A stretch of DNA of 64,000 bases from Escherichia coli. Lineage in GTDB: Bacteria > Pseudomonadota > Gammaproteobacteria > Enterobacterales > Enterobacteriaceae. The DNA is taken from assembly GCF_045037415.1 (NCBI RefSeq), contig NZ_CP173438.1; one strand, 5' to 3'. The position numbers are program-made. This document shows positions 6,001 to 12,000 of the stretch, in pieces; within the stretch, counting starts at the first letter, position 1, and the number at the start of each line of letters is the position of its first letter.

Positions 6001-9000
6001 TTGTCCGGCTGGACAATGTTACCGATAACAGTTACCCGTAACATTTTTAATTCTTGTATTGTGGGGGCACCACTTTGAGCACGACTAACCATGATCACCA
6101 CATTTACGTCTTGATGGGCGTATCGGGCAGCGGCAAATCTGCGGTCGCCAGTGAAGTGGCGCATCAACTTCATGCCGCGTTTCTTGATGGCGATTTCCTC
6201 CATCCGCGCTGCAATATCGAAAAAATGGCGTCTGGCGAACCGCTGAATGACGACGATCGCAAACCGTGGTTGCAGGCGCTGAACGACGCCGCGTTTGCTA
6301 TGCAGCGCACCAATAAAGTATCGCTGATCGTCTGTTCTGCACTGAAAAAACACTATCGCGACTTGCTGCGTGAAGGTAATCCTAATCTCTCTTTCATCTA
6401 CCTGAAAGGCGATTTTGATGTGATTGAAAGCCGCCTGAAAGCGCGCAAAGGCCATTTCTTTAAAACCCAAATGTTGGTGACGCAGTTTGAAACGCTGCAG
6501 GAGCCGGGTGCGGACGAAACCGATGTACTGGTGGTGGATATTGATCAACCGCTGGAAGGTGTTGTGGCAAGCACCATTGAGGTTATTAAAAAAGGCAAAT
6601 AAGTAGTGACTACATTAACGCTTGTTTTAACAGCAGTAGGGTCTGTTTTACTGCTGCTGTTTTTAGTCATGAAGGCGCGTATGCACGCTTTCCTGGCTTT
6701 AATGGTGGTGTCCATGGGGGCTGGCCTTTTTTCCGGTATGCCGCTCGATAAAATCGCAGCGACGATGGAAAAAGGGATGGGAGGCACCCTCGGCTTCCTG
6801 GCGGTGGTTGTCGCCCTGGGAGCCATGTTTGGTAAGATCTTACATGAAACCGGCGCGGTCGATCAGATTGCCGTCAAAATGCTCAAATCCTTCGGTCACA
6901 GCCGCGTGCATTATGCCATCGGCCTTGCGGGGCTGGTTTGTGCGCTACCGCTGTTCTTTGAAGTGGCGATTGTTCTGCTGATTAGCGTTGCTTTCTCAAT
7001 GGCGCGCCACACCGGCACGAACCTGGTGAAGCTGGTAATCCCATTATTCGCCGGCGTGGCGGCAGCGGCTGCGTTCCTGGTGCCTGGGCCAGCGCCAATG
7101 CTGCTGGCATCGCAGATGAACGCCGACTTTGGCTGGATGATCCTGATTGGCCTGTGCGCGGCAATTCCGGGAATGATTATTGCCGGGCCGCTGTGGGGTA
7201 ATTTCATCAGCCGCTACGTGGAGTTGCATATTCCTGACGACATCAGCGAACCGCATCTCGGCGAAGGCAAAATGCCGTCCTTCGGATTCAGCCTGTCGCT
7301 GATCCTGTTGCCACTGGTGCTGGTGGGGCTGAAAACCATTGCCGCGCGTTTTGTGCCAGAAGGTTCTACCGCTTACGAATGGTTCGAGTTTATTGGTCAT
7401 CCGTTTACCGCGATTCTGGTTGCTTGCCTGGTGGCGATTTACGGTCTGGCAATGCGTCAGGGTATGCCAAAAGACAAAGTGATGGAGATTTGCGGTCACG
7501 CGCTGCAACCGGCGGGGATCATTCTGCTGGTGATTGGTGCGGGCGGCGTGTTCAAACAGGTGCTGGTTGACTCTGGTGTCGGTCCGGCACTGGGCGAAGC
7601 GTTAACCGGCATGGGCCTGCCGATTGCCATCACCTGCTTCGTGCTGGCAGCTGCAGTGCGCATCATTCAGGGTTCTGCTACCGTTGCCTGTTTAACGGCG
7701 GTGGGATTGGTAATGCCGGTCATTGAACAACTGAACTACTCCGGTGCGCAAATGGCGGCACTGTCGATTTGTATCGCCGGTGGTTCGATTGTTGTCAGCC
7801 ACGTTAACGACGCGGGTTTCTGGTTGTTCGGTAAATTTACCGGCGCGACCGAAGCCGAAACGCTTAAAACCTGGACCATGATGGAAACCATCCTCGGCAC
7901 TGTCGGTGCCATCGTTGGGATGATTGCGTTCCAGCTGTTGAGTTAATTACTGCGACAAATTACTGCGAGCTTGCTCGCAGTAATTCATTTCTCTTTTCTC
8001 CTGTCTTCATCTTTTTGATCTCTCTCGCAAAAAGACCGGAACATTATCCGTTCTAATCACTGTGTTAACGGACGAGGGAGAAGATGATGGAGAAACACGG
8101 AGCTGAATTGCTGTTACAGCGGATGTTAAGTAACACCAGCGCTACTTTCAGGGAAGGGCAATGGGAAGCTATAGATGCGGTGGTTAATCAGCGGCGAAAA
8201 CTACTGGTTGTACAGCGCACCGGCTGGGGGAAAAGTGCCGTGTACTTCATCGCCAGTAAAATCTTCCGCGATCGCGGCGCTGGCCCGACAATTATCATCT
8301 CTCCTTTGCTTGCCCTGATGCGTAACCAGGTTGCCGCCGCTGAACGGTTAGGTATTACGGCTGAAACGTTGAATTCTACAAACAGGGAAGAATGGCAGCG
8401 CATTAGCGATAAGTTGCTGCAAGGTGGCGTAGATTGTCTGCTGATTTCACCTGAACGGTTGGCGAATCAGGATTTTCTTGAAACGGTTTTATATCCAGTC
8501 GCTGACCGCATCGGTTTACTGGTGGTCGATGAGGCGCACTGCATCTCTGATTGGGGCCACGATTTCCGCCCGGATTACCGACGTATATTAGATATTTTGC
8601 GCCAACTGCCTGCGAATACCCCTATTCTGGGTACAACCGCGACAGCGAATAACCGTGTCGTTGAGGATATCCGTCAGCAATTGGGTGACATTGTGATTCA
8701 GCGTGGAACGCTGGCTCGCGAAAGTTTGGCGCTTGATGCCTTAGTCTTAGGAGAACAGTCATCCCGTCTGGCATGGTTAGCAACGGTTATCCCTCAGTTT
8801 TCCAAATCGGGAATTGTTTATACCCTGACGACTCGCGATGCTGAACTTGTCGCCGAGTGGTTAAGGAAAAATGGTATCAGTGCATTTGCTTATTACAGCG
8901 GCGTGACTTGTGAAGGTGCGGAAGATTCTAATACTGCCAGGGAGTATCTGGAGCAGGCACTGCTGGCAAATAAAATCAAAGTGCTGGTCGCGACGACGGC

Positions 9001-12000
9001 ATTAGGTATGGGATTTGATAAACCTGATTTAGGTTTCGTCATTCATTATCAGATGCCGGGGTCTATTGTCGGTTACTACCAACAGGTGGGGCGTGCCGGG
9101 CGTGCTATAGATTCCGCAGTTGGCATATTGCTTTGTGGTGGTGAAGACCGCGCTATTCATCAATTCTTCCGTGAAAGCGCCTTTCCTGCGGAGGCGCAAA
9201 TTCATGAAATACTCAACGTACTTAGCGAGAATGACGGTCTTACCCTACGAGGCATTGAACAACGGACGAATCTTCGTTATGGGCAAATAGAAAAAGCACT
9301 GAAATTATTGGTAGCTGAAAATCCATCGCCTGTGGTGTATACCGAGAAATTATGGCGCAGAACTATCGTCAGTTTTTCTCCTGATCATGAACGAATTAAC
9401 CATTTGATGAATCAGAGAAAAAGTGAGTTGGCAGACGTTGAAAGCTATATCACGACCAAGGAGTGCAAAATGCAATTTCTGCGCCGCGCACTCGATGAGC
9501 CAAGTGCCGAACGTTGTGGTAAATGTAGCAGTTGTCTTCAGCATCCGCTGTTGTCGCCCGACATTGATAGCGACTTACTCCATGCGGCAAATTTATTTAT
9601 TAAACACGCTGACCTGCCATTAAATCTCAATAAACAGGTGGCATCTGGGGCTTTTACGCAATACGGATTTAAAGGGAACTTGCCTGCGGGTTTACAAGGA
9701 TCTACGGGGCGAATCCTTTCTCGTTGGGGAGATTCCGGGTGGGGAAAGCAGGTAGCCCAGGAGAAAAAAACGGGGCGCTTCAGTGATGAGCTGGTGGAGG
9801 CATGTGCGGAAATGGTTCGCCAACGCTGGAATCCGCATCCTGAACCCACCTGGGTATGCTGCGTTCCTTCATTAAGGCACCTCGACCTGGTTCCTGATTT
9901 TGCCCGGCGACTGGCGGCGAAACTTGGCTTACCTTTTATTGATGCCATTGAAAAAGTCGTGGACAATCCACCGCAGAAAATGCAGCAAAACCGTTTTCAC
10001 CAGTGTCAAAATCTCGACGGGGCGTTTGTGATTACCCCTCCTTTGATGCCAGGTCCGGCGTTGCTGGTTGATGATATCGTGGATTCTGCATGGACGCTGA
10101 CAGTTCTGACAGCACTGTTACGCCAGGCAGGTTGCCCGACGGTTTATCCTCTTGCCCTTGCTTCTACCTCGGTAAAAAATTGATGAATCTTTCAGCCAAT
10201 GCTCAAGCAACTCTCCTGCTAACCAGCGATTTTTCTCGCGCGGCGGCGAGTGAGTATAAACCTCTTAGTAATAGTGAATGGGGGAAGTTTGCATTATGGC
10301 TGAAGCACCAACGTATCAGTCCCGCCGAGCTTCTGGTGCCGCAACCGCAAGAGAAACTTACAGGCTGGAGCGATCCGCGTATTTCTCAGGAGCGAATTCT
10401 TGGCTTGCTGGCGCGTGGTCATAGTCTGGCGTTGGCTGTAGATAAGTGGCAACGCGCCGGTTTATGGATCTTAACCCGCGGAGATGCCGATTATCCCGTT
10501 CGCTTGAAAAACCGATTGCGAACGGATGCACCTCCCGTTTTATTTGGCTGCGGGAATAAAGCATTACTGCAAGCGGAAGGTATGGCGATTGTTGGCTCGC
10601 GAGATGCTCCGACTGACGATTTGCGCTATACCCAACAACTGGCCGCGAAACTGGCCCAACAGGGGATTTGCGTTATCTCTGGTGGTGCGCGAGGTATTGA
10701 TGAATGTGCAATGGCCTCGGCTCTGGAGGTCGGGGGAACTGCCGTTGGCGTATTAGCTGATAGCTTGTTAAAAACGAGTACGTTAGTGAAATGGCGTGAA
10801 GGGCTTATAGCAGGCAACCTGGTGTTGATTTCGCCGTTTTACCCAGAGGTACGTTTCACCGTCGGCAATGCGATGGCGCGGAATAAATATATTTATTGCC
10901 TTGCTGAAAGCGCAATGGTTGTACGTGCGGGAATGACCGGTGGAACGATAACCGGGGCGATGGAGGCATTAAAACATCAGTGGCTGCCCATGCAGGTTAA
11001 ACCAAATCAGGATATGCAATCAGCCAATTCACGATTAGTAGAAAATGGGGCGTCATGGAGTGCTGAACAGGCTGAGAATGTGACGATCAGACTGCCAGAC
11101 GTTCCTGGGCTGATGTATGACAGAGCACTCCGTAACGCTCAACCAGAACTGTTTTCGCTGCACGAAGATGACGCAAATTACGCAGTAATGCCCGCGCATA
11201 CCCCTGTCGATTTTTATCAACTCTTTGTGGCGGAACTGGCGATCCTTGCAAAGGAATCGATAAGTATTGAAAGGCTGGCGTCTTGTACTGGTTTAACCAT
11301 CGAACAAATTAGTGTGTGGCTGAACCGCGCAGAAGAAGAGGGAAGGGTTATCCGATTGGGCGAAGGTCATTATCAGTTCAGGTAATAAAACAGGTGCCGC
11401 GTCTGGTTGTGTGCAACACCTGTTTGAACCTTACCCCTTCATCCACATTCGAATGCCGTCGAGGAACATCTGAGTTGCCATCATCACCAGAATCAATCCC
11501 ATCAGGCGTTCAAGTGCGTTCACCCCTTTCTCGCCCAGCAGACGTAAAAATAGCGAAGACTGTAGCAGGATGACAAAGGTGCCGCCCCAGGCCAGCAGCA
11601 GAGCAATCACCAGATGTCCCATCTGATTCGGGTACTGGTGAGACAACAACATCAGCGTGGCGAGAATAGTCGGCCCGGCGACTAACGGAATTGCCAACGG
11701 CACGATAAATGGCTCTTCACCTGCCGGAAGCCCGCTGCTATTTCCTGAAGCGCTGGGGAAAATCATCTTAATGGCGATCAGAAACAGAATGATGCCGCCA
11801 GAAATGGAGACGGTTTCTGCCCGCAGGCTAAGAAATGCCAGAATTTTCTCGCCCGCAAACAGGAACACCAGCATCACAAGGAGAGCAATAAGCAACTCTC
11901 GCACCATGATTGCCCGCCGTCTTTTCGGTTCAGTATGTTTCAGTACGGACATGAAAATAGGTAGGTTTCCGAGCGGATCCATAATCAGGATCAATAAAAC

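Follow-up and report, generated by a model that had tools for sequence, protein, structure and literature searches.

Very probable identity of an accessory gene pair between gntU and yhgN in Escherichia coli as the chromosomal rqlH-rqlI (PsyrTA) module

What is a pair of accessory genes doing between two core genes of Escherichia coli, and has it been described before? The question is raised by a 64,000-nucleotide stretch of contig NZ_CP173438.1 (assembly GCF_045037415.1), which we analysed as a whole and call the window. The first-pass annotation had placed two intact co-directional genes at 8084-11385, between gntU and yhgN, in agreement with our open reading frame (ORF) calls. It read them as a RecQ helicase fused to a phosphoribosyltransferase (PRTase) followed by a DprA-like protein, and proposed a helicase-bearing variant of known anti-phage pairs or an undescribed system. 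The class has stood and the novelty has not: the pair is of the toxin-antitoxin (TA) type, listed as anti-phage and related to ShosTA, and the system is PsyrTA/RqlHI. We conclude, with a probability of roughly 0.9, that the window carries the chromosomal E. coli rqlH-rqlI operon, catalogued as PsyrTA, a two-gene TA-like module; the identity as RqlHI and the TA logic, taken by themselves, are near-certain.

Both genes matched models of this system along nearly their full length. In PADLOC, gene 1 matched PsyrT at E = 0 (1065.7 bits; residues 3-698 on profile positions 4-687 of 689) and gene 2 matched PsyrA at 1.4e-202 (671.1 bits; residues 1-400 on positions 1-397 of 398), with the next-best models, DpdF and ShosA, hundreds of bits lower. 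Every sequence-testable feature of PsyrTA/RqlHI was present, namely the toxin architecture, the DprA-like partner, and adjacent co-directional genes with the toxin first. PsyrTA is the same system as RqlHI, whose operon genetics were worked out in F11, a strain of extraintestinal pathogenic E. coli (ExPEC) (Russell & Mulvey 2015, PMC4670107). F11 RqlI has 400 aa, and the published RqlH mutants are K49A and D148A in the helicase and D663A and DIVD663EVME in the PRTase (PMC4670107). K49, D148 and D663 map exactly onto the window protein counted from the ATG at 8087, which gives 698 aa and is the start in both the Prokaryotic Genome Annotation Pipeline (PGAP) annotation and the published numbering; the ATG at 8084 gives 699 aa. 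The PGAP product, WP_001296481.1, comes from a record 100% identical to the window over 7947-11430. We found no difference of substance between the F11 and window pairs: the species, the two-gene operon, the lengths (698 and 400 aa), the residues and the absence from MG1655 are shared, as expected of alleles of one locus.

The same insert has also been cloned. Millman et al. 2022 describe PsyrTA, "also called RqlHI", as a defence TA system whose toxin is a PRTase and whose antitoxin is DprA-like, and their Table S2 lists construct SG127, a 3485-bp clone of PsyrTA from Escherichia coli STEC 1299. The first bases of SG127 match the window from 7946, which identifies the same gntU-yhgN insert, and the STEC 1299 proteins are 97.2% (PsyrT, first 399 aa) and 97.8% (PsyrA, all 400 aa) identical to those of the window. 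Because the insert and the proteins match, the window module is an allele of a system that was already known, having been named, cloned and tested, and is not new. For the identity to F11 we used the numbering of the residues, the protein lengths and the sequences printed for STEC 1299 in Millman Table S2, in which long entries give the first ~400 residues.

The first-pass annotation had held that no described PRTase/DprA-like system has an N-terminal RecQ helicase, a claim that fails because PsyrTA/RqlHI has exactly that architecture. An undescribed helicase-bearing variant of these systems might be suspected from the lack of a ShosT match to the PRTase domain and the partial ShosA match to gene 2, but it is scarcely credible for a pair with its own name, full-length PsyrT and PsyrA models, a literature from 2013-2015 and an insert cloned by Millman et al. 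The Bacillus sp. FJAT-29814 PsyrTA has the same layout, a RecQ-PRTase toxin of 690 aa and then a DprA-like antitoxin of 418 aa, and belongs to the same PADLOC/DefenseFinder family as the window pair. RqlH of Mycobacterium smegmatis (PMC3378886), likened here by description only, is also a RecQ-like helicase with a C-terminal PRTase. Unlike in E. coli, many Gram-positive and actinobacterial RqlH genes have no rqlI partner (PMC4670107).

ShosTA (also DprA-PRTase; Rousset 2022; Pu 2025; Yang 2026) likewise combines a DprA-like antitoxin with a PRTase toxin, but ShosT, unlike RqlH, has no helicase. ShosT models gave no match at E <= 1 to residues 501-699 of gene 1, and ShosT was not among the best 25 of the 38 PADLOC families that matched the full protein. 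We rejected a ShosTA identity on the missing ShosT match to the PRTase domain and the presence of the helicase. The PADLOC ShosA model matched gene 2 at 6.2e-27 over residues 85-266 only, ~580 bits below PsyrA, and sequence searches of the PDB related the Rossmann-like domain of gene 2 to DprA and ShosA (ShosA crystal structures at ~2.5e-07). Judged by these comparisons, gene 2 and ShosA appear to be of related fold but not of the same family.

Motifs, Pfam and an NCBIfam subfamily model all bore out the reading of gene 1 as a RecQ-family protein with a TGWGKS motif, a DEAH box and a cysteine cluster. The Walker A TGWGKS lies at residues 46-51, DEAH at 149-152 and GRAGR at 336. Pfam identified DEAD (5e-25) and Helicase_C (4e-13), and the RecQ subfamily model recQ_fam scored 251.2, above its cut-off of 219.8. 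By sequence, residues ~6-357 matched RecQ-family cores in the PDB, including the E. coli RecQ core (1oyw, 4e-53). The zinc-binding element contains a cluster of four cysteines, C461, C478, C481 and C484; across an alignment of 37 homologues, C481 and C484 are invariant and C478 is nearly so. The RecQ_Zn_bind match covers model positions 23-66, and ~85 residues (358-443, window ~9155-9412) separate it from the helicase C-terminal domain. Residues 374-411 gave a faint match to a MarR-type winged helix (E 0.19).

The ComFC-like PRTase proposed for the C-terminus was weak by Pfam and was upheld by structure prediction. Pfam Pribosyltran matched residues 606-684 at E 0.0087, and among the matches listed for the 855 homologues of residues 460-699, most carry a precomputed PF00156. 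A 37-sequence alignment of the region has an invariant D204-D205...D208-S209 motif, and the phosphoribosyl pyrophosphate (PRPP)-loop motif VDDIVD contains D664, numbered D663 in the F11 work. An AlphaFold2 model of residues 460-699 had a predicted local distance difference test (pLDDT) score of 87.1. Its top Foldseek match was H. pylori ComF (7p0h; E 4e-05, TM-score 0.41, identity 16%), followed by adenine, purine and orotate phosphoribosyltransferases, PRPP synthetase and PurF; sequence searches of the PDB gave no match to the domain at E <= 0.001. According to the model, the C-terminus of gene 1 is a type I PRTase fold, nearest ComF. This best structural likeness has its limits, since unlike ComF/ComFC the domain has no competence operon context here, is fused to a helicase and is predicted to be toxic.

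Other PADLOC helicase models, including DpdF, Cas3-like and BrxH, were set aside as generic superfamily 2 (SF2) similarity, far weaker than PsyrT. DpdF models matched gene 1 at up to 303 bits, far under PsyrT, and DpdF was rejected on its NCBIfam score (147.2 against a cut-off of 550) and on the gene context, which is gntU and yhgN and lacks dpd genes. Under the DpdF label PADLOC has a 74-position model (PDLC02869) that hits the C-terminal 74 residues of PsyrT (626-699, window 9959-10180) at 1e-54, and a second model (PDLC02866, 255 positions) that spans the PRTase region. PsyrT-like fragments seem to be the source of some PADLOC "DpdF" models, which could mislabel gene 1.

Gene 2 is a full DprA-like protein, as the first-pass annotation had held. 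Pfam DNA_processg_A is complete at residues 89-292 (10447-11058; 2e-50), and a helix-turn-helix is predicted in the C-terminal region. The TGATG stop/start overlap could be read directly in the sequence, and F11 rqlH and rqlI share a transcript, according to reverse transcription PCR (PMC4670107). The ATG at 10183, which gives 400 aa, lies inside a longer ORF, 10090..11385. PGAP calls the gene from the ATG at 10090, with 431 aa and a 94-bp overlap with rqlH. We favour 10183 because the PsyrA profile and the published RqlI (400 aa) begin there, which probably puts the RefSeq start 31 codons too far upstream.

A gene 1 that exceeds the RecQ subfamily cut-off, a gene 2 with a full DNA_processg_A and a PRTase structurally nearest ComF could also be housekeeping paralogues, an extra RecQ and an extra DprA with roles in recombination or natural competence. 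Models of the housekeeping proteins themselves argue against this. Gene 1 falls far under the RecQ equivalog cut-offs (TIGR01389, 293.3 against 640.2; NF008279, 223.5 against 1015) and gene 2 under those of DprA (TIGR00732, 101.2 against 191.15; NF008007, 80 against 495), so we rejected both housekeeping RecQ and canonical DprA. The TIGR01389 and NF008279 matches stop near residues 355-366, and those to the RecQ-family structures 1oyw, 4tmu and 4q47 near 349-357. A core RecQ paralogue without a PRTase fold, the outcome that the first-pass annotation had named as fatal to its proposal, is not what we found: the fold is present and the RecQ equivalog cut-offs are missed. On its profile scores, gene 2 is DprA-like but not DprA. 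Additionally, the pair is missing from ~70% of E. coli genomes, including K-12, and the F11 orthologue of gene 1 is toxic on its own, and housekeeping paralogues are a very improbable explanation.

How the two proteins work together is best known from F11, for which toxicity tests of gene 1, alone and alongside gene 2, and the Walker A, DEAH and PRTase mutants suggested by the first-pass annotation were already published (PMC4670107). Assayed in MG1655, RqlH alone caused SOS induction, filamentation, a higher mutation rate, and lower growth and viability (PMC4670107). This toxicity was abolished by D663A or by deletion of residues 509-690, and the PRTase domain on its own was not toxic (PMC4670107). 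The helicase-dead K49A and D148A forms were more harmful, in a D663-dependent manner (PMC4670107). RqlI rescued the toxicity and co-precipitated with RqlH only when the PRTase domain was present (PMC4670107). For M. smegmatis RqlH, Russell & Mulvey state from the earlier work that helicase activity is lost in the equivalents of the K49A and D148A mutants, and that neither ATPase nor helicase activity needs the PRTase domain (PMC4670107). With K49, D148 and D663 conserved in the window, it is near-certain, by homology with F11, that gene 1 would be toxic and that gene 2 would neutralise it.

We propose that RqlI and the helicase's own activity restrain a PRPP-dependent toxic activity of RqlH. 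Homology with Bacillus PsyrTA and the likeness to ShosTA suggest that the module may be a latent abortive-infection or DNA-surveillance device. Infection would disturb the RqlI-RqlH complex, or foreign DNA intermediates would occupy the helicase or the DprA-like protein. The freed PRTase would then consume or misuse PRPP and purine-pathway substrates, and its release would damage the replication of host and phage alike. In ShosTA, PRPP binding by the ShosT PRTase is needed for toxicity, which comes with disrupted purine metabolism, DNA damage and filamentation, and the DprA-like antitoxin senses single-stranded DNA (ssDNA) and RecA, or loses stability once host synthesis stops.

A number of observations weigh against this defensive mechanism. 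Our sequence searches of the PDB found neither PsyrT nor PsyrA. The analogy with ShosTA may fail to hold: ShosA neutralises ShosT without binding it, via ssDNA and RecA, whereas RqlI co-precipitates via the PRTase domain of RqlH. Over the first ~400 aa of each protein, the Bacillus FJAT-29814 pair is 53.5% (toxin) and 31.6% (antitoxin) identical to the window pair. Under "observed defense" in Table S2 of Millman 2022, FJAT-29814 PsyrTA is the only PsyrTA marked "v", and SG127, from E. coli STEC 1299, bears an "x", for no defence; defence has been seen for the Bacillus system, unlike the STEC 1299 allele. PsyrTA of E. coli NILS69, expressed in MG1655, likewise did not protect to a detectable degree and brought only poorer growth, in an independent study that also deleted PsyrTA from NILS69 itself. 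Plaque assays with the cloned module, another experiment that the first-pass annotation had suggested, have thus been published already, with negative outcomes for the E. coli alleles (Millman 2022; NILS69 study). Russell & Mulvey themselves favour a cooperative function of RqlH and RqlI on bacterial DNA (PMC4670107). Because two E. coli alleles tested negative, we hold an anti-phage role of the present allele, argued by homology and analogy, to be possible but somewhat doubtful.

The negative phage assays also bear on a different view of the biochemistry, in which the module would not act by abortive infection. The helicase would instead deliver the PRTase to DNA for DNA-directed or DNA-proximal phosphoribosyl transfer, with RqlI as a DNA-loading or gating subunit. 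Such chemistry would explain the non-toxic lone PRTase and the harsher helicase-dead mutants as well as the negative E. coli assays. We know of no helicase for which DNA-directed phosphoribosyl transfer has been described, and we regard this view as improbable.

As stated in the first-pass annotation, gntU and yhgN are adjacent in K-12; in MG1655 they are convergent, with a spacer of 56 bp and no module. The K-12 alignment stops exactly at the gntU stop codon (7944-7946) and restarts at the yhgN stop (11431). The presence/absence polymorphism predicted for this junction is borne out: among 5426 complete E. coli genomes, 1650 (~30%) have the module, in every case chromosomal and nearly always single-copy, and 3774 (~70%) have the K-12-type empty junction. 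Carriers and empty sites add up to 5424 of the 5426 when totals are compared rather than matched genome by genome, as would fit a polymorphism of two states at the junction. Among the carriers are ST131 (100% identical over 7947-11430), other ExPEC and O157:H7, and published surveys report PsyrTA as enriched in phylogroup E2. Compared with O157:H7 ATCC 43888, rqlI is 98.8% and the flanking genes are 97.4-98.8% identical to the window, a similar divergence. The GC content of the module (0.45-0.54) is not clearly distinct from that of its flanks and gives no compositional sign of recent transfer. Because rqlI and the flanks diverge alike and the GC content is unremarkable, these comparisons argue for long residence and vertical descent of the module, not recent transfer. 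K-12 alignment and ORF calls revealed no direct repeats, integrase, insertion sequence (IS) or other mobility genes at the module borders. The region upstream of rqlH (7947-8083) is 86.9% identical to O157:H7, compared with 97-99% for the flanking genes.

Lesions interrupt rqlH in some lineages. In O157:H7 ATCC 43888, rqlH is a pseudogene (93.1% identical to the window) beside the intact rqlI: one base pair is deleted at window position 8602, and at 9873, in the PRTase-coding part, there is a 29-bp insertion that resembles a tandem duplication of adjoining sequence. Other O157:H7 records among the matches listed have a two-piece rqlH match with the same ~27-bp length excess. Mobile elements have broken rqlH in NZ_OZ501598.1 and NZ_OZ040267.1 (equivalent to window ~8084-9600): one has an IS1 inserted in the helicase part, and the other has an ISEcp1-blaCTX-M-15 unit directly upstream of an rqlH remnant without its N-terminal half. 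PGAP names the N-terminally truncated PRTase remnant of rqlH "ComF family protein". We read these cases as signs of toxin-gene decay with the antitoxin gene kept, as in TA systems.

Might the module instead not be primarily immune in E. coli, with RqlH and RqlI doing joint repair, recombination or nucleotide-salvage-coupled work on the cell's own DNA? The toxicity would then be a side effect of an unbalanced pair, and the link to ExPEC fitness would reflect low-oxygen growth instead of pressure from phages. Indeed, rqlI was first found as an ExPEC fitness factor in zebrafish and mouse infection models, and its loss causes microaerobic growth defects and DNA stress; Russell & Mulvey suggest that the pair cooperates on DNA to the benefit of the cell (PMC4670107). 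The failure of two E. coli alleles to protect against phages, the apparent long residence and vertical inheritance of a module without mobility genes or repeats at its borders, and expression patterns conserved between strains all fit such a role. However, a module absent from ~70% of complete genomes is dispensable, rqlH has been disrupted in several lineages, by the O157:H7 lesions and by the IS1 and ISEcp1 insertions, and the homologous Bacillus system defends against phages. Additionally, deletion of rqlH suppresses the infection phenotypes of the rqlI mutant (PMC4670107). Because of this suppression, the rqlI-mutant phenotypes report the release of a toxin, not the loss of a useful activity. 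We consider a primarily non-immune role unlikely, if by no means far-fetched, and retain the rqlH-rqlI TA-like module as our reading.

Around the module, the + strand of the window carries gntR, gntK and gntU before the pair, which is followed by yhgN on the − strand, asd and glgB (features in the table below). The hairpin 3' of gntU folds as RNA at -16.6 kcal/mol (z = -4.8) and stands where K-12 has the CCCGGTAG...CTACCGGG hairpin. The inverted repeat between rqlI and yhgN folds at -18.5 kcal/mol (z = -4.2) on the − strand and at -14.5 kcal/mol (z = -2.0) on the + strand; it is probably a terminator shared by the two genes. Its loop is longer than a simple terminator scan allows, and the scan did not call it. 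A promoter scan of 7900-11500 gave nothing resembling a sigma-70 site on the + strand upstream of rqlH. Its sole match lies on the − strand within the gene, and this is fewer than chance expects. An Rfam scan of the whole window gave nothing within the module. The sole family at gathering score was RyhB (RF00057, 83.1 bits) at 2810-2874 (+), an expected core-genome feature upstream of yhhX.

Table. Positions in the window of the rqlH-rqlI module, its predicted domains and adjoining features.
Feature	Coordinates	Strand	Evidence
rqlH / psyrT, predicted toxin component, RecQ-like helicase-PRTase fusion	8084..10183	+	ORF, PADLOC PsyrT
SF2 RecQ-type helicase core, aa 20-357	8141..9154	+	Pfam, NCBIfam, PDB sequence matches, motifs
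RecQ-type zinc-binding element, aa 444-485	9413..9538	+	Pfam RecQ_Zn_bind E 0.0014 (weak); cysteines
C-terminal PRTase domain, ~aa 510-699, predicted toxic moiety	9611..10180	+	AlphaFold2 and Foldseek, PF00156 in homologues
TGATG stop/start overlap, rqlH to rqlI coupling	10181..10185	+	sequence
rqlI / psyrA, predicted antitoxin component, DprA-like, 400 aa	10183..11385	+	PADLOC PsyrA, Pfam
Accessory segment with rqlH-rqlI	7947..11430	.	3484 bp in place of the K-12 56-bp spacer; K-12 alignment
Terminator-like hairpin 3' of gntU	7958..7985	+	terminator scan; 12-bp stem and T-rich tail, inside the accessory segment
Inverted repeat between convergent rqlI and yhgN	11388..11425	.	RNA folds
yhgN, downstream of the accessory pair	11431..12024	-	ORF call

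As a discovery the module carries little weight, since standard defence-system annotation with PADLOC or DefenseFinder models would label it automatically. It has some practical relevance in pathogenesis, as ExPEC without rqlI are attenuated in infection models by the released toxicity of RqlH.

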